Source: Podarcis cretensis (Eukaryota). From it: a stretch of DNA of 64,000 bases. The stretch is from the NCBI GenBank assembly GCA_951804945.1, contig OX638166.1:39866001-39930000 (forward strand). Reading direction: 5' to 3'. Positions 3,822 through 61,300 of the stretch are shown here, one piece after another. A model generated the notes under the pieces. That model was not told the DNA's origin, made no database searches, and was given only the letters and a program-made list of their open reading frames with translations. Every line of letters begins with the position of its first letter. The stretch's first letter is position 1. A program made the translations under genes and the position numbers.

Positions 3822-6552
3822 GCTGAGCCTGAGCGTTATCTCTGTGGCTTGAGTGCATCTCTCAGATTGTGCAGCGGGGGGGGGGGGGCACAGCTGCTTA
3901 GGGCAGCAAGATGCCCCCTGGCTGGCCAAAGGTGGCTGCTGAACCACAGTCTGGAGCTGCCTTTCCTTGGCGGTATGCCAGAGCCCCAGCATGAGCATAT
4001 TTCAGAGTCCAGTTACGTGAACCCTTTGGCACCAGTTGCCAGTGGGAAAAGCCTCGCTTGTATTGATTCCTAAATACATCACTCAGCAAACACACTGCCG
4101 GTCATCATCTATAAGCATGTTAAAGAATCAACTTTCCCTTTCTGAACGTCTGTGATGGCACACCGGGTGTTGAGTGTGCTCACGGTGACTGCAGAAGCCT
4201 GAGCTTAGGTGGGTGGGACTGCAGACTTAATGGTGAATTTGGGGCGCTTTTATGGGGCTGGGGAGCGGTGTGGAAGACAGGCCGCAAACTGCACAAAAGT
4301 ACCCCGTTCACTTCAGTGGGGGCTGATGTAGGGAAGCTTTCTGGAGGACTGTGCCTCATGTTGATTGGTAGGATGGGGAGCTAGAAGCATTGCCATGTCA
4401 AGAACCAAAATCCTTGGGGTGGCCCACTGACTGGCCTGGAAGAAGCCAATGGTGACCAAAAGCTAACTTGGACAAAATGTTTCCTGTCACTACCAAGTTC
4501 TGAAAGTGTTTGGTGAATGGATGTTTCTGCTCATATCTACTTGTTCTTCTCTAACATATTCTTACTTGCTCTGGGACTCCAGGATAGAACAGGATTTCAG
4601 GAATTTAAGATTTTATTTCCTTATGAAAGCCAGGTCCCAAGACACGAAAAAATGAACTGTAGATTTGGAGGAGGGGCTGTTCTGGAGAAGGAGCTGGGCT
4701 ATGTAGATAAGCACAGTCTTGATTCTCAAAGGCTTCTATGGGACCTCTATGGGAGAAAGTAAATAGGTGGCAATATGGGACATAGATGAGAAGGGAACTC
4801 ACCTGCTTCCGGTGACTTATTCAGGGTGTGGGTAAGAGGGAGCAGGTTTAGCCTCTATCGCAGTGGCATCCCTGAGTGTACCCTGTTACTTTCTCCCCAG
4901 ATGCTAATAAGAGCAAGTAAAACACTGCATTTTGGCATTAAGGGGGGCAAAGAAAGAGATCCTTCAGGGTGCAATGACCAGAGATGTGCACCAGCACTTG
5001 CCCCATCCCTCCATTTGCCACAACAACAGACACTTTGCTGGTACTGTAAATGAAACTGCTTTGCAAGCCTCTAAGTGGCTCTGATGCAAAAATGCCCTGA
5101 TAGAACTGTCTCTCCCAGCCACCCAACACCAACAGAAAAGGCACTGACCTGCCCACCATGACTGGGGTGTATTACTGAGAATCATTCTGAGAACTTTAGC
5201 ATATGTATTTGCACATGTATACACAGCAAACAGACAACCACCCGCTATAGCAACTTACAGATAAAATTCACACACACAGTCCCATATACAGTATGCATAC
5301 CCAGAATATGGATATAAATGATTGTGTGCATGAAAAGAATTAATTTCCTCCAATACCAACACATGGCAGTTTCCATTGTGAGTGGTGCACATTTGTTTAA
5401 ATGGTGAGGCTTTCCAACCATGAACACACAGTATGGGATCCCAATCTTTTTCTGATCACTGTTTTCATGTTGCAAGGACAACATTTGTTTAAATAATTGC
5501 ATACTGCTCATAGCTAAAAGTGCTGCATGTGCATTTGCTCATTTAAACTCTTGTGGTTTTTCTCCACTTCAATCCGCATGCAAAATGTACATTGGGGAAA
5601 AATCTGTTCCCATGATATGTGTGCATGAACAGCAGCCATACATTTCAGACGCATGGAAGCCACTTTAACCTTACTGACTGTTCCTGATACACATTTATTT
5701 CCTCTTCCTCCACTCCTGCCCTAGCTGACAAATTAGATTTCCAGAGGGGTTACAGTGCTTTAAGAAGTGCCTACTAAAACCTGAAAACTACTCTTCACCA
5801 GGAGTGCAACATTCTTAGAAGAGTGGATACACTTTTATTTTGTATCACTATCAGAGGGTGCTATTGAATGGTTCCTAGTGACATCAATAATTGCAAAATA
5901 TGGTTCTCCACACATCTGCCCCCAGGACTGCAAATCTGGAAATGTGTGTGCGTGCGCAAATACTTAGCTGAAAAAGAAGAAGGAAGCATAACATGAATTA
6001 GTTGTATGCTGTGGTATGTGCCACCAGTGATTTGACTAAGGCTGCAATCCTAATCCCACTTACCTGGGACAGTAAGCCCCATTGAATCAGTAGGGGTTAC
6101 TTTTGAGTAAGCATGGCTAGCCTTTTAACTGTAAGCAACTAACCGCATGTTGATGTCTGTTTTAAACACAAAGTGTATAATTTGCTTATAAATCCCCGCA
6201 GCTGACTTCATAGCCTAGGCAAGCTAATAAACTCTTAGTGTTGCATATGCACAACTTGGAATATAGGGGAGGTGATACTGGCTTTCCTTGTAGAGATATT
6301 GTTTATTATTACTTTATCCATTTATACATTACATTGATATCCCACCTTTCCTCCAGGGGCTCAAGGTGGCGGACATAGGTTCCCCTTGCCATTTTATTCT
6401 CGCAATAACCCTGTGAGGGAGAAAATGCTAAGAATGAGTGAGAGGCCCTAGGTCACCCTGTGAGCTTCATAGCTGAGTGGTGATTTGAACTCTTGTCTTC
6501 CACACTCTAACCACACCACCACACTGGTTGCAAGACTCACTTAATGAAAATG

Positions 6553-21700: not shown

Positions 21701-24700
21701 GGCCATGCTGGCTGGGGCTGATGGGAGTTGGAGTACATCATCATCTGGAGGGCACCAGCATTGGCTATCCTTGTCATTGATGCCAACTCCATCTTGGCCC
21801 TGGGTCTAATATTCCGCTGAGGGTTTGGGATGCCTGTGTTGGAGTGGCCTGTGCTGGATGCCTGCTCCTTTGGCTTTATTTCTACCTTCTGTTGTGGACG
21901 GATGCTACAGTGCCCCAGAGCACTGTTCCAGAGATCTGTATGGAGGAAGTGTCACTACTGTGTGTGACTGACAAAGAGCTGGGACTCTCTCTCAAATAGG
22001 TCTGTGCCCTGACTGGGATTCGTGGGATGCTAGCAAACCTGTCAACAATGCCCGGGAGGCCATGCAGCAAGCGGATGACTGGCTGGGCATCCCACAGGTA
22101 AGCAGCACAGATACTTGGTCTGTGCTATACAGAACTTTGTGTTAAGCTGAACTCTGCTCTGGGTAGGTGTATTGGCAAAAGTGTTTACTGCTTCCAGTTA
22201 TGGCCAGGGGCAAGTGAGCAATGTGGAGTCCGAAGGTGTGTTATCCCTTGACCCCCACCCCAGGATGCTGCTTAGATTTCCCAGAAATGCTTAAAATAGT
22301 TACATTCTAGGGCCCCCTCTGCAGCCTTTAGGGCTAGAAGTCTGCTTTTTGAAAAACAAGCACTGGGCTTCTTGGGAGGCTGCATCCTGTGCTGGCTCTG
22401 TACTTGACTCCTGGCGTGTGAGAGGTAAATTTGGCTCTCCTTTGCTGTCTCCAGCTATTTGCCTTCTTTCCTCTGTAGGTGATCACTCCTGAAGAGATTG
22501 TGGACCCCAATGTTGATGAGCACTCGGTCATGACATACCTCTCCCAGTTCCCCAAAGCTAAGCTAAAGCCAGGAGCCCCCCTTAGGCCCAAACTGAACCC
22601 CAAGAAAGCCAGAGCTTATGGCCCAGGTGAGTCCAGGACTTCTTAAACAATTGGGAGATTGACCACAGTGGGGGCAGGTGGGTGTTGACAAGGGATCTTT
22701 CCTAGGACGGCGTTCTTCAACCTTGGGTCCCCAGATGTGGTTAGACTGCAGCTTCCATAGTCCTGCTATTTTAGCCAATGGGATGATGGGAGTAGTAGCC
22801 CAACAATCTCAGGGGACCCAGGGTGTCGTGAATAGAATAGCTGCCTCATAGGGCTCGACTCAAAGGTGTTTGTACTTGGGTGGCACTGTGGGTTAAACCA
22901 CAGAGCCTAGGACTTGCCGATCAGAAGGCCGGCAGTTTGAATCCCCGTGACGGGGTGAGCTCCCGTTGCTCGGTCCCAGCTCCTGCCAACCTAGCAGTTC
23001 GAAAGCACGTCAAAGTGCAAGTAGATAAATAGGTACCACTCTGGCGGGAAGGTAAACGGCATTTCTGTGTGCTGCTCTGGTTCACCAGAAGCAGCTTAGT
23101 CATGCTGGCCACATGACCTGGAAGCTGTACGATGGCTCCCTTGGCCAATAAAGTGAGATTGAGCGCCATAACCCCAGAGTCAGCCACGACTGGACCTAAT
23201 GGTCAGGGGTCCCTTTACCTTTATGTTTTTTTAACCTCTTCCTTGCAACACCCTGTGATCGCCTTGTGATGGTTTGCTCTGTACCATCTCTGTGGCTCTC
23301 CCATCAGCTCTAGCTAGCATGTGTTGGCTTTCCTGAGGTCATCCAGGCTGTACAGTGGAGATGATGCTAGAACCACTGCTGTACAAATTGATGGCATCAC
23401 GGGCCAGGGGGTGGTACAGTTACTACTGTATCTGATCATTTCACAGGCATTGAGCCCACAGGCAACATGGTGAAGAAGAAGGCAGAGTTCACCGTTGAAA
23501 CGATCAGTGCTGGCCAGGGAGAAGTGCTAGTCTATGTGGAGGACCCTGCTGGACATCGGGAAGAAGTGAGTCCCCCTGGGAGTGTGTCCTTAGAGGTCTG
23601 GATGGCCAGGCATTGAGACGGAAGAGTTATGGGGGGTGTTTTGGGTGGGTTGTACCATGCCAACCACTACTGAACTTCCTCTGTCTGTCCTCAAGGCGAA
23701 GGTCATTGCCAACAATGACAAGAACCGGACGTTCTCTGTGTGGTATGTGCCAAAGGTGACAGGAATCCACAAGGTAAGAGTCTGTATATCGTGTAGGTGA
23801 TTGGGAGAAAATTCTGGAACTGGGCCTTCATCTCAGTGATCAACATTTGACGACCTTCACTTTTTGCTCCAGGTGACGGTACTGTTTGCTGGGCAGCACA
23901 TTGCCAAGAGCCCCTTTGAGGTGAATGTGGACAAATCGCACGGGGATGCCAGCAAGGTCACTGCCCAGGGTCCTGGCCTGGAGCCTGTGGGCAACATTGC
24001 CAACAAGACCACCTACTTTGAGATCTTCACTGCTGGTCAGTGGATGGGGGCGGGGTGCTGGTTCTGAGAGGGTGGAAGGGTGTTGGCCAGCTGAAGCCTG
24101 GACGCAGCTTGAAAGCAAATGACGTAGTTGGCTGGTTTCTTAGAAACTTGTTATAAATAGTTTAGCCACCATTCCCCAACCTGGTGCATTCTAGGACCAC
24201 AGCTCCCATCAACCCCAGCATTCTTGGCCCCAATGGTCAGAGGATGGGAACTGCAGTCCAGCAACACTGGGGGGGAGGGAGTACTGTGTTGGGGACACCC
24301 GAATTGTTGGCAATGAATAAACTGTTGTTGGAGAACTTTTCTCACTATGAACTGAGTAATTGTGTTGGAGGCTTCAATTTCTCGCCAAAGTGGAACCTTT
24401 CTAGCTCTCCTGCTTTCGGAGTTGCTTGTCAAAGCATCATGTCTTCAGAGACTAAGAGCTCTGGGTAGGTGGGCTTCCAAGTTGGGAACAAGTCAGGCTA
24501 CACATAGCATTTTTGAGTGTCCAGTGCTTCACATAAGATTGTTGGAAGGATTACAGAGAATACCAAAAGGAAGAGATTGTGAGTGAGTAGCTTGCCTAAG
24601 GCTGTCCGTGGAGGAGGGCAGCTTAGTTGGCTTAACAGCCCCACTCTGACTCCTTCAAGGTAGGCTGTGGCTGGAGGAACTAAGGCCTGCTGTCCAGGCC

Positions 24701-27700
24701 TTAGTTGGGCAACATTTTGGTGAAGTTTATGCCTGTTGCTTCAGCATGCCATAGAGTAGGAGGCAGAATGATCAGACATTTATATTAGGAATATACAGTT
24801 TCATGACTCCACGTCTTCTTAACTTTCATATGTGTAATTGTGAATTCAGAACTGCCCTGAGTAATATTGTATTCAACGTGGCAGGATATGAAACAAAACA
24901 ATGATTCAGAGTACACAGTAGAGCTTGCTTTGAGATCAGTCATCCTTGATTCTCTTATCCAGGAATGTCACCCTCTCTCCTTGCCTGCCTTGAAACTCTC
25001 GGCTCTTCTCCCTTCAGGCAAAAGGCAACTTCCTTGTCCCAACAGCCCTTTGCAAACAATTGGTCTCTTGTCTTGGCGTTTCATTTTTATTTATAGCTGG
25101 ATGTTAGAACAGTCTCCTCTGAACTCTTGAGGCTGAAGATGAGTACCTTTGCTTCCAGACTAGTTGCTGCCTAAGCAAGTCTGTCTGAATTGCTGGCCTC
25201 ATCTTCCAAGCATGAAAGGTCTCCCACTGAATCCTAGCTGAAGCCTATCCAGTGCTAAGTAGAGCATAACTTGCAGCCCACAGTAACTGGAGCAAACAAA
25301 TCTTCCATTTCTTTGCTTTCAGAAATGGGTCTGTTACCAAAGGCTGAAGCATAGCGAAGTTTTAACTTGGGGACATTGTGGTGTTTTCTCCACTAGCTAG
25401 AAAGAAGCTGCAAACAAACTTTAAGGCTGCTCTTAAATGTCTTTAATTGCTAGGTGCATGGCTACAGGGTGCACTAAGCATGGAAGGTAGGGATGCAGTA
25501 TAAATAGCACTTGAATTCTGTTCTTAAAATGCTGCCCCAAGAAACCTGCAATTCCTACGTAAATTAAATAGAGCAAGCAAAACTTGTATAATGTTTCTCT
25601 TGCATAGCACTGCTAACGACAGAAAATGCCAAGGAGCTGTGCAGGGCTTAATCTTTTCCCTGGAAACTCATTGCTGAGTTCTTGGTCCAGATCAAAGGCC
25701 TTCCTGTAATTGAATACTTAAGGTTGCATGCACTATCTCCACCTAACACCTGCCTCTCTTCATCTTACCCTAATCCCTCCCCCCAGGTGCTGGTGTTGGG
25801 GAAATCGAGGTAATCATCCAAGATCCGACTGGCAAGAAAGGGACAGTGGAGCAGCAGCTGGAGGATAAAGGCAATAGCACCTACCGCTGCACCTACAAGC
25901 CCACTCTGGAGGGCACCTACACCATCTACATCACCTTTGGGGGCATCCCCATCCCCCGCAGCCCATATACGGTCACCATTGGCCAGGGTGAGTCTCCCAT
26001 CTGGCACGGGGCTTGTTGGTGGGGTCTCTTTTAACCTTAACACCACTGCTGCTGCTTGGTTTCCTCTTTGTGACCAGAAGGGGGGTGGTTCTTTGTTCTG
26101 CTCCTAACGCTTCTCCTCTCCTCTCTGCCTACCTCCACCTGTCCTGGCCCAGCTCTCCTCTGCTCTGTCCTCTCTTCCTCTGAAGAGCCATCTCCCTGGA
26201 TCTCTGCTGGCACTCATCTCCTCCCAGCTGCTCGGCGCCTGGATCCAGGGCCAATGGTATTTCACTCTTGGCAGGTGTGGGTGGGGACCTGTGGCAAGGG
26301 TGCATGTTGCTTCTGTCCAGGGGAGCAGTCTATGGGCTTGAGATCCGGCCTCCCTCTCATGGGTGGAGCTAGTTGAATGCCTGGCGTGTTAATGATGGCA
26401 AAGACCCACCCAGTTGGGAAAACTGGAGTTCTACTTGGACTCGATAGGGACGCTCACCCTCTCTCTGCTGCTACAGCATGCAACCCAAATGCCTGCCGGG
26501 CCGTGGGTCGAGGCCTCCAGCCCAAAGGTGTCCGAGTGAAGGAGACAGCAGATTTCAAGGTCTACACAAAAGGCGCTGGCAGCGGAGAGCTCAAAGTGAC
26601 AATAAAAGGCCCAAGTAAGTCCAGTGTGTGTGTGTTTGTCTTCCCCACCCTCTGTGTTTCAGACATGGGAGGGTGGGATTTGCACTTAACCCAGAAGCTC
26701 TGCCTTTTGGCCTGGAAGTGCTATAGTCTAATTACTCTGTGTGGGAAATGTTGGAAGCCTGATGACACTTTGCATAGGCTCAGAGGCATTCGGGGTGCAG
26801 CTGCTGCACATGTCTTAAAGCAGACCCCTAGCTTGTGTGGTAATGCCCCTTTGGAAGGCAAGCAGTACACTGCAAAGCCCATCTGGCTAGTGCATGCCCA
26901 GATCTGTTTGGGGGAACATGAAGAAACTGCAGAGCAGTGTTCAAAACACCCATTGTTCTAAGCACATTTTGTGACAGGGAATTTCATTAGTGCGAGAGGT
27001 TTCTGAGCTCTGGGCGCAGAACTGTGCCTAAGATTTCAGATTAAAACTGCAGAGTGGAAAGAAAGGAGGACTTTTTTCTGCCTCCCCACTTCCAGCTACT
27101 CTCTGAAGACTGGAGAAGAGACCCTCTTAAGAATATTAGGGGGTGGGCAGGGGAAGGCTAGACCATCTTCAGCTTTGTATTGTTATAAAAAAGTGTGCCT
27201 AGCCATTCCTTTGTTGCGCCTATAACCTAGGTTTAAGGTGCCATTTAGCTCCTAGCCTTCATAACTCGGTTTCTAACACGGCTGCAGAGTTATTTATTAC
27301 CAATGGGGGAACAGGCTGATTGCACAGGAGGCTGTTGCTTCTGCTGTGCTGGAGCATCCATTGATGGGGACGTGGTGATTTGGGCTCCACTGACTCTCAG
27401 ACATGGCAAGCTCTAGAATCTCTTTGAAGCCTAAGAAGCTATCAATCGTGCTTGCTTGCCCATGGGCTGTTTTAAAATTCTTGGGTTTTACAGCAGGAAG
27501 TTCTTCTGGTGCAAGTGTAATTGGTCTATAGGAGGGGCTGATGGTGGCATTTGTACTTTGTGCAAGCATGGAAATGTGCTGAGGCAAGGAAGCAAAGCAG
27601 TAAATTGAGTGGCTGTTGTGGAGTCATGGCGGGGCAAGCAGAGCCACAAACCACTGTAGAAAACATAATTGGGTTCTTGTCTGGGCTGGAAGGAGAGGCT

Positions 27701-57700: not shown

Positions 57701-58346
57701 CCATGATCCCTGAGCACCTGCTAGCTAAGGGTGATGGAAGTTGTAGTCCAACAAGAGCTGGAGACCCAAGTTTGGGAAACCCGGATCTAACCCAAATGAT
57801 CTCTTCTGCCAGAGCTCCTGAGGAGCATCTGCTAGTTGGGTTTCCTTCCCAGGAGCAGCAGCAGCAGCAGCAACCTCCTCCTTTTCTCTGGAATTCCTGA
57901 GGCCTTCTGCACACAAAGCAGGTTGCCTGTCACTGAGCTACAGGTCTCTCTCCTTGGCGTTACAGGCAAGCTGTGAATCTGTTTGCGCTTGCAGCCGAAC
58001 TAGACACAGTGCCATTCACAAAACTCGCAGTTGTTTGTTTGTTTCCAAAGTGAAGAGTAAGCAAGGGGGGCCACCAACCCAGACCAAAACTACGGTGGGG
58101 GCAAAGGGCTAATGGTCCCACGTCCCCTGGGTCTAGGATCTGGAGGAAGCCTCATCAGGAGGAGATGGCCTAGAGGACATTCCTTCACTGAATGGGAAAG
58201 TCACTAAGTTTCAAGACCACCTTTTCTGAGGCAGCAACTTTAAAAAAAAAGAACTGAGCCAGGAGACGATTCACCATTTCCCCAAACTTTGTGATTTTGG
58301 GCTTACAATCCTTGGAAATAGCTGTCTTTTATTGAGCAGCTGTGAG

Positions 58347-58388
<42 letters not shown>

Positions 58389-61300
58389 ACACACACACAC
58401 ACACACACACACGGTGTCCAACGCTAGAAGTCGTGTCAACTAGGAAGAGAATCAGAGCAGAATCAACGCAGTTTGAAACTCTGCTTCCTTTGCTTGTGCA
58501 GAAAGCTTTTGTGGGGTGGGGCAGTGGCTCTGCTCCTGCAAGTGCCCCACAAGAACCCAAGCAGTGGGCTTTGTGGCTCTTTTGGGTGGTCTGTCTGATG
58601 CCCTGTGCAGGCTCTTCATCACTTCTCTCTCTTGCCCCCAACTTTGCTTTGAGGCTAACGCAGGTGGGCTGCTTTCAGAAGCAACTTTATGGGCACCTCT
58701 TCTCCCCCACCCTTGCTTGGCCTCTCCCACACCTGAATTCCAAGGGGGGAAGAGACCCCCCAGAATGTGACCGGATCGGGGCTTTTCCCAGGGTGTCTTT
58801 GTCTTTGAGGTCACATCCCTTTCTCTCTTGATGCCAGGGAGGGGGGCCATCTGTGCTTTGTATGTTGTCCTTGTCAGTACCTCCATTCTTTTTGGGGGGC
58901 GGCGGGGGGGGGGGTCTGCCAAGTCATATCTCAGGCAGGTTGTGTGATGTTCACCTTTCCAGGATGCAAAGAAGGATGCTTCTCTGTTCCCTGGGCGTGG
59001 GCATGGCTAGCATTTGTCCTGGGCAGACACAATTGGGAGTCTTACTTGGCTTGCATCCTTGTAACTGCTGATAGACATATCTCGGGGGGGGGGGGGAGGT
59101 GGGCCTTCCATATATTGTTGTTGGCCTCCCATCAGCAGCAGCTGGAACAGTCAGTACTTGGGGATGATGGGAGTTGTAGTCCAGCAATATCTGGAGGGTC
59201 ACACAGGTTCCCCAGCTGTGCCGCAACAGCTGGCTGCACATCAGTGGGATTCCACTCCAGTGAAACACAGCCACATTTGGGACAATCAGTGCCAAACAAA
59301 TGGGGGCAGTGCAGCATGGGTGGGTGTGTTGTAGAGTAGTAACTCCTTTCTGCATTAGTTCCTTGCAGTGCTGACCTTTTCAGCTGATGATAATAAAACT
59401 GGCATTCACTTTCTCTCCTGTGGATGAAATATTCAGCTACCAAATGACAGGGCCATGGGGGTGGGGACAGAATGAGCTGCACAGAAGCAACTGCCCTACT
59501 TTCCACTTGTTGTGCAACTCCCAGATACTACAGTGAATGCCACCCCATTGGGAATGCTTCCTGTAACAGCTCTAAAACCAAACCAAACTCCCTCAGCTTC
59601 TGTTTAAGCCCACCATGAAATAGAAAGGGGGCAGGGGGAATAAGTGTCATCTCTCCAGAAATGTGTTCTGGAACTAGGAACAAAATCAAAATTGAGTTCT
59701 GGCTCTTGCCAGCTTGAGTGTGTTGAGTCCCAGGACCTCTTTCTGCACTGAGCAGCTTTTGGAATGGCTCTCTCGGTATGTAAAATGACTGCTGAGCTCC
59801 ACTTCAGAACCCAGCATTGTGCTTAGTTCAAGAATCTGACTCCAAAACTCTCCCAAGCCGATGTTTGCAATACAAACTTACCAAAGCAAACCTGAAATTT
59901 AAAAGCATTTAAAGGGAAGAAGGTCCACCAAATCCATTTTTATGCAACAGCTCAGATGGCTTGCTGGCCAGCTTGCCTGTCTACACGCTCTTTCTCTCCC
60001 CCCCCCCCCCGACTGTCTGGTACCTGGTGGCTTTTCAAGATCTGTCTTTGTCTGCTCCATGTTCCATCGCTGTTTATGAACTCCTGCCATTTCTTCCCAT
60101 CCCTCCTTGTCTTGTCTGGCTCTCGAAAAAGCAAAACTGATTCTCACTGCGGTGTTGGGTTTGGGGGTGCCTCTGTCTTTTCCAGGCAACAGACCGTCCT
60201 GTTAATGGACTGGATGCCGGACTGCGGCCTTTCGACTTGGTCATTCCTTTTACCATCAAGAAAGGAGAGATCACAGGTAATGGGATGGGAGGGGGATGTG
60301 ATCAAAGTGGTTTAGGACTCTGCCTTTTACAGAGGTCAGGGCAATAGTTTATAGCCAGGCTGTGTTTTGAGCAGTATGCTTGGAGCACAGAATGTAAATG
60401 GAGGCAAAACTCAGCTTCCTGATCTCTGTTAAGTTCCTAGTCCTTAAGGTAGATTGTGAAGCATATGGCAGCGTCTGGCAAGATCAGAGGGCTGCCTGAA
60501 TAACTGTTTATAGTGGCTAGGGTGGGGGCTTCAGTGCCCTGTCTGTTTTTTGTTTTGCCTTCTCCATAACTAGCATAAGTAGAATAAACTCTAGAAGGTT
60601 TTATGCAGATTCTGGTTCTCTTGATAAAGGATATGGGTTATCTGGGTGCAGAACGTTTGATGCAGAACACCAAACTTTCCTAGTTTGCTTCAGTACAGTC
60701 TGAAAATATAGCTGTAGCACTTGCTGTTACATGCCTGGTATATAAGGATTTGGATATAGATCTTAATCATGTCTCCATCCTTGGTAGCATATTTTTATCT
60801 CTAAGAGTCATGGAGCTGGAAGGGCCCCAAAGTCTAACCTCTTAGTCCAACCTATGCAGGTCTAACCATCTAGAAAGCTTATCTACTTCCTCACCTCAAA
60901 TTAATAATCTGTTGATGGCGTAGCAAATAGAGCTTTGCCAAACCAGTTCAGTTTTTCAAACTCCTAGGATTGCAGCATATTAAATGTCTCTCCTTTCAAC
61001 AGCTCTATGAAAGGTAGATGGAATTACAGCTTTACATGAATCCAGTGGCCTAGCTAAGCCCAGTGAATTGTGGACCAGTGATTTTAATCCAGGTCCCCTT
61101 AAAATGTCCTCTCTGGGGTCCTTGCAAAAAACAGATTCCTGGGTCCTTGCATTCCTACACTGGTGAACAGAACCCACCAACTTAAAAGAGCTTTATGTGG
61201 TTTCCTCCCTCCCCACAGGTGAGGTGCGCATGCCCTCTGGCAAGGTGGCAAAGCCAGACATCACAGACAACAAGGATGGCACAGTGACAGTGCGCTACGC

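Follow-up and report, generated by a model that had tools for sequence, protein, structure and literature searches.

The window, by which the whole 64,000-nt stretch of Podarcis cretensis DNA that was analysed is meant, carries FLNA, its actin-binding-domain exon encoding 82 of 84 residues identical to human FLNA (179 bits, versus 160 for FLNB). Two further filamin loci in the P. cretensis genome were assigned to FLNB and FLNC by their peptides. The part of FLNA considered here comprises:

25787..25987, + strand: FLNA exon 9 (human numbering), 201 nt as in human, ending in phase 1; placed by tblastn to human residues about 410-477 and by junction reads.
25988..26476, + strand: intron 9, 489 nt, bounded by 16 skip-junction reads from two runs.
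26477..26614, + strand: FLNA exon 10, 138 nt, equal to the human length; placed by tblastn and junction reads.

According to the supplement of PMC13078869, intron 9 is 537 nt long in human and 552 nt in mouse. The sequence-only reading of this DNA had taken part of the lizard intron for a reptile counterpart of the mammalian FLNA poison exon. It had listed CTCCTAAC at 26101, three AG, two GT and a TGCATG at 26301, all of which a check of the sequence found in place. The features that follow from these motifs are:

26101..26108, + strand: predicted distant branch point, with its A at 26107, 79 nt upstream of the exon; two reading frames of reptile records allow CTAAC at the aligned site.
26109..26185, + strand: CU-rich tract, a predicted PTBP1-binding silencer and pyrimidine tract, recognised by its CU counts and conserved in reptile records.
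26151..26152, + strand: upstream CAG acceptor, giving a 104-nt exon with the same frameshift; kept in reptile records, without a mammalian match (profile score -2.2 vs 20.3).
26186..26256, + strand: predicted poison exon, putative orthologue of mammalian exon N; 71 nt (3n+2), AAG acceptor, weak donor, first in the profile ranking, with codon identity in reptiles.
26275..26276, + strand: possible second donor, giving an 89-nt form with the same frameshift; not kept in reptile record P0008.
26301..26306, + strand: TGCATG hexamer, possibly there by chance; the aligned site of P0008 is without it.
26537..26539, + strand: TGA of the shifted frame, in exon 10, 75 nt upstream of the exon 10/11 junction.

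Like exon N orthologues, the candidate exon is found in the FLNA intron flanked by the 201-nt exon 9 and the 138-nt exon 10, and the stretch of intron 9 that holds it is single-copy in its own genome. Its AAG acceptor is unexceptional for FLNA because two constitutive exons of the gene, at 23696 and 36233 in the window, appear to use AAG acceptors as well.

The tract upstream of the exon is unusual in the window. The 100 nt before 26186 contain 19 CU 4-mers and 5 CTCTYY motifs, versus 0 to 8 CU 4-mers before each of 20 constitutive acceptors picked by eye. At least 19 CU 4-mers were present in just 0.2% of sampled 100-nt segments, all but one of them within a CT-rich stretch near 58300. That stretch (about 58270-58460), probably a simple repeat, is the sole other place in the window to equal the tract in CU 4-mers. 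On the + strand of the window there are four places where a branch point precedes a tract that is free of AG and at least 80% pyrimidine. PTBP1-repressed neuronal exons are recognised by CU-rich clusters that lie after the branch point and before the acceptor; intron 9 has such clusters, and the tract is kept in reptiles. Folding of 26090-26310 gave a z of -1.84, with 7 of 200 shuffles equally stable, and a stable RNA structure was not used as evidence.

The claim that all six acceptor/donor combinations share one frameshift was borne out: each of the six pairs has a 3n+2 length and reaches the stop TGA 26537-26539. Nonsense-mediated decay (NMD) is triggered by a stop more than 50 to 55 nt upstream of a later junction, and this TGA, 75 nt before the next junction, lies where the stop of a poison (AS-NMD) exon is expected. 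Retained intron 9 would meet a stop at 26032.

Poison exon N of mammalian FLNA/Flna is reportedly the subject of Zhang et al. 2016 in Cell. Review passages describe the Flna poison exon as PTBP1-repressed and included in neurons, one of them calling it highly conserved in mammals, and mention a similar exon in Flnb. PMC13078869 gives an exon of 57 nt after 222 nt of intron in human FLNA (57 nt also in a preprint) and 57 nt after 230 nt in mouse, where Ptbp1 knockdown raises inclusion by 0.21 PSI and 5 CTCTYY and CLIP peaks lie upstream. The PhastCons value of the mouse Flna exon is only 0.23 (PMC11188260).

Mammalian sequences for comparison were protein records, gene calls that read from exon 9 into intron 9, so that other species are represented by peptides, not DNA. 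They span the exon in all three frames, the coding frame ending in LSPSEELAPAV and a stop or in close variants. The human exon begins at +223, as deduced from four records with the human exon-9 peptide and in agreement with the published coordinate, and its length is 57 nt in 15 of the 15 mammal-type records that show both ends. Since start and length equal the published values, the exon of these records is taken to be exon N, which has an in-frame stop at its seventh codon. In four mammal-type records (P0105, P0107, P0173 and P0174) the usual exon-N stop reads Trp and there are two frame shifts; by eye their exons would be 55 to 56 nt long and still disruptive.

Both ends of exon N have a likeness in the lizard intron. 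At the acceptor, the mammalian peptide ending in LSPSEELAPAV aligns with the window peptide at 26186, and at the donor mammalian QGQRY aligns with QGQWY at 26256. A three-frame profile was built from 13 of the 20 mammal-type records (five stop before the exon; P0105 and P0107 were dropped for indels against the anchors) and applied, with AG and GT left out of the score, to all AG/GT pairs on both strands of the window. With block limits set after the likeness was seen, records that are not mutually independent and a target fixed beforehand by the sequence-only reading, the 26186/26256 pair scored 20.3 and ranked first of 63,166 pairs (runner-up 9.3), the 26188 pair scoring 3.4 and the 26153 pair -2.2. 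In all ten settings of the full profile 26186/26256 ranked first of 102 pairs within intron 9 and between 1 and 49 of 63,070 in the window. Scoring of exonic positions alone gave window-wide ranks of 42 to 44, and reduced profiles gave lower ranks, the lowest being 6248 of 63,070 with a single peptide as the profile. Taken one at a time, mammalian peptides give weak matches: for the 15 tested, 0 to 55 of 60 shuffles reached the score, and P0103 (0/60) aligned elsewhere. The best local matches of single peptides were 5/7 at the donor in one frame and 3/5 at the acceptor in another, mostly within the shuffle range. Between the two splice sites, the lizard and mammalian exon sequences give a poor alignment. 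From the peptides, the acceptor and donor of 26186-26256 are homologous to the sites of exon N, and just this one of the six proposed exon forms, all of which are in place, matches the mammalian exon.

The shifted-frame translation of the exon, used as a query, gave 0/16 candidates and no matches among 1.84 billion representatives. A scan of 193 stretches for vertebrate FLNA DNA in metagenomes yielded one locus, which was unrelated.

Conservation over branch point, tract and exon had been proposed as a check, and a peak was found in reptile protein records. The reptile-type set consists of five records that read through exon 9 into intron 9, found by exon 9 protein searches; in P0006 and P0007 the exon-9 peptide is identical to that of garter snake FLNA. 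All five align to intron 9 of the window at 34 to 122 bits, and in each 0/60 shuffles matched the score. Codon identity rises from 13-17 of 31-34 in the 5' part of the intron to 18-22 of 28-29 across the branch point and the tract and 18-19 of 21-23 in the exon (four records reaching it, including 19/23 and 19/21), and downstream of the donor it is 7/24 (one record). From branch point to donor, 37/50 codons are identical in P0008 versus 22/58 in the flanks (Fisher p 0.0002), and 41/51 in P0006 versus 13/31 (Fisher p 0.0006). The exon of P0008 is 9 nt shorter, 62 nt, and still 3n+2. Turtle, crocodile or bird read-through was not recognised among the protein matches.

Neither the 26274 donor nor the TGCATG is kept at the aligned sites of P0008, the sole reptile record that reaches them. 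There are 34 copies of TGCATG in the window and 4% of 100-nt segments contain one, so its occurrence does not go beyond chance. In review passages, RBFOX is connected with Ninein, whereas Flna is connected with PTBP1. By the comparison with P0008, the TGCATG is not the conserved downstream UGCAUG of RBFOX-activated exons.

The sequence-only reading also argued from position. The acceptor at +198 had been likened to +180 of the same intron, and human variants near c.1429+180 are said to cause periventricular heterotopia. The human exon, 57 nt with an internal stop, starts at +223, and +180 is not an exon start. A literature search for FLNA 1429+182 found nothing, one FLNA splice-variant paper being without mention of it. 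What stands of the proposed counterpart is the homology of both splice sites and the conservation in reptiles.

We consider it likely that the segment 26186-26256 represents poison exon N of mammalian FLNA in squamates, as its orthologue, and works as in mammals. The DNA and the aligned peptides show the position, the homology of both splice sites, the conservation in reptiles and the stop to which an included exon would lead. Inclusion of the lizard exon, its neuronal specificity, PTBP1 binding and decay would follow by analogy with the mammalian orthologue, whose binding and repression by PTBP1 and inclusion in neurons are shown for mouse and human. Where PTBP1 is high, in progenitors and most non-neural cells, it would occupy the long CU tract that separates the weak AAG acceptor from its distant branch point, and skipping of the exon would result. 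As PTBP1 falls in neurons, the 71-nt exon would be included and would shift the frame, so that translation would break off after about 520 residues, at TGA 26537 of exon 10. The mRNA with the exon would then undergo nonsense-mediated decay, leaving less filamin A.

The lizard exon shares with exon N the intron, the matching acceptor and donor, the long upstream CU tract (5 CTCTYY in mouse Flna, 5 in lizard), the AAG acceptor, the weak donor and an NMD-type stop. In contrast, it is 71 nt long, has no internal stop and frameshifts to a stop in exon 10, whereas exon N is 57 nt long with an in-frame stop at codon 7, a form absent in the lizard. It starts at +199 of intron 9, versus +223 in human and +231 in mouse. 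There is an extra upstream CAG in the lizard, absent from the mammalian match, and lizard expression and PTBP1 control are presumed from the mammalian case. The way the stop is made apparently differs by lineage, being inside the 57-nt exon in most mammal records and by frameshift in the reptile records. A review passage reports stronger repression by non-mammalian PTBP1, which may lower inclusion of the lizard exon.

For RNA evidence, four of the 24 listed runs, of unknown tissue, were mapped, and the RNA status of the two contig runs was guessed. The two raw-read runs contain 9 and 7 skip junctions from exon 9 to exon 10, with zero depth in the exon and intron. Their reads (X23 and X24) differ from the window in exon 10 by A>C at 26535 and C>T at 26583, likely alleles or a close species; the A>C variant leaves TGA 26537-26539 intact. 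The two contig runs gave unspliced intron pieces, 26035-26339 and 26167-26399, at a depth of 2 to 3, exonic contigs being missing. Contigs of X1 and X5 show T>C at 26329, likewise probably allelic or from a close species. No inclusion junction was found in these four runs of unknown tissue; rare variants are lost from contigs, and the included form would be masked by decay.

These contigs, which cross the splice sites unspliced, and the want of inclusion junctions would fit a second explanation, in which squamates have the same ancestral element and mainly retain intron 9, with its stop at 26032, or keep a silent repressed relic. We regard this as unlikely. Conservation is highest over branch point, tract and exon, falling to 7/24 codons after the donor, and both splice sites match the mammalian exon. 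Moreover, the contigs have a depth of only 2 to 3 with no control intron, lose rare variants and come from runs whose RNA status is guessed.

A third explanation is also quite unlikely: the spliced exon would still poison FLNA, but its main site of use would be a different tissue low in PTBP1 (heart or muscle, for instance), or its predominant form would be the one of 104 or 89 nt. Other tissues come into question because the paralogous human FLNB exon is included at 23 to 40% in heart and 7 to 90% in brain (PMC6952364 supplement). Of the longer forms, the 104-nt one would use the 26153 CAG, the first AG past the branch point and kept in reptile records, and the 89-nt one a donor with a better consensus match (7/9 at 26274, versus 6/9 at 26256). 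However, the mammalian match is limited to 26186/26256 (20.3, versus -2.2 for 26153) and P0008 is without the 26274 donor; the stop is identical in these forms, hence the outcome would be the same.

Use of the GAG before 26188, which does give a stop-free in-frame exon of 69 nt (87 nt with the second donor) as the sequence-only reading had said, is very unlikely: the 23 extra residues, close to where two Ig repeats meet, would resemble the in-frame proline-rich exon of FLNC at the paralogous intron, and the AAGAG tandem fits snake-type and some mammal-type peptides, but GAG is found at 0/20 constitutive acceptors of this gene picked by eye (AAG at 2/20), human and mouse use the first AG, giving 57 nt, some mammal-type records read GRT without a second AG, and the profile score is 3.4 versus 20.3.

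The orthologue of exon N has possible relatives in other filamin genes. In mammals, the FLNB/Flnb exon in the paralogous intron (98 nt in PMC13078869, between 198- and 138-nt exons) is described as PTBP1-repressed and NMD-inducing, and is 3n+2 like the lizard FLNA exon. The paralogous introns of P. cretensis, in the putative FLNB and FLNC, hold:

L011:2898-2985 (G000:C2), intron +384 to +471: candidate 88-nt FLNB exon, with a branch-point-like site, pyrimidine tract, CAG acceptor, GTAAGA donor and internal stop.
L012 reverse complement 4358-4462 (G000:C10): in-frame proline-rich FLNC exon in an 8.4-kb paralogous intron, 80% identical to the gecko FLNC insert.

Five TGCATG lie at +765 to +1332 of the putative FLNB intron, downstream of the candidate 88-nt exon. 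The best scores of the mammalian profile in the lizard FLNB and FLNC introns were at most -7.6 and 6.2, respectively. Likeness between the FLNA exon region and the FLNB intron with its 88-nt candidate was not significant (4/100 shuffles reached the score), and the match to the FLNC intron was a simple pyrimidine repeat. The FLNC proline-rich insert (gecko P0030, fish P0051 and shark P0076, and also the P. cretensis genome) is an extra exon at the same intron position as the FLNA exon; it is in frame and coding, without convincing sequence likeness to it. Searching the literature for 'filamin C' with 'exon 9a' found nothing on this insert.

Among 19 named, mostly shortened vertebrate filamin models, two exit the normal sequence after exon 9 via a frameshifting cassette. 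Between FLNA exons 9 and 10, the Ascaphus truei model P0010 has a 97-nt cassette (3n+1) and the Pampus punctatissimus model P0092 an 80-nt one (3n+2), both leading to an early end. The ends of these frog and fish cassettes showed no likeness to those of the lizard and mammal exons (p 0.16 to 0.92). Together with the FLNB candidate and the FLNC insert, they suggest an old cassette slot; common descent is not proven. It is a tentative proposal, and a rather doubtful one, that a PTBP-gated intron 9 cassette predates the vertebrate filamin duplication. In FLNA and FLNB it would then have persisted throughout bony vertebrates as a means of switching the gene off in neurons, the FLNC slot would have become a coding insert, and selection would keep the poison while length, sequence and route to the stop change (an internal stop within 57 nt in most mammals; a frameshift by 71 or 62 nt in reptiles; 97 nt in the frog and 80 nt in the fish model).

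On sequence grounds, the lizard exon is genuinely orthologous to a known switch, and what is new is the different stop mechanism. No description of a reptile FLNA poison exon was found in the literature searched, which was mostly judged from listings and did not include Zhang 2016, its supplement or VastDB. The finding extends a known mechanism and adds no new one. It would illustrate cleanly how a poison function can persist through a change in the mechanism of the stop. The positions shared with reptiles would mark intronic positions around the human exon that are under long-term constraint, which bears on the reading of deep-intronic FLNA variants.

If the lizard exon is the orthologue of exon N, the switch predates the mammal/reptile split; a review puts the mammal-bird split at about 310 Mya. 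With an orthologue in squamates, FLNA would already have been switched off between progenitor and neuron in the amniote ancestor, before the layered neocortex. If the cassette did arise before the filamin duplication, the mammalian cortex would be much younger than the shut-off of filamin in new neurons.
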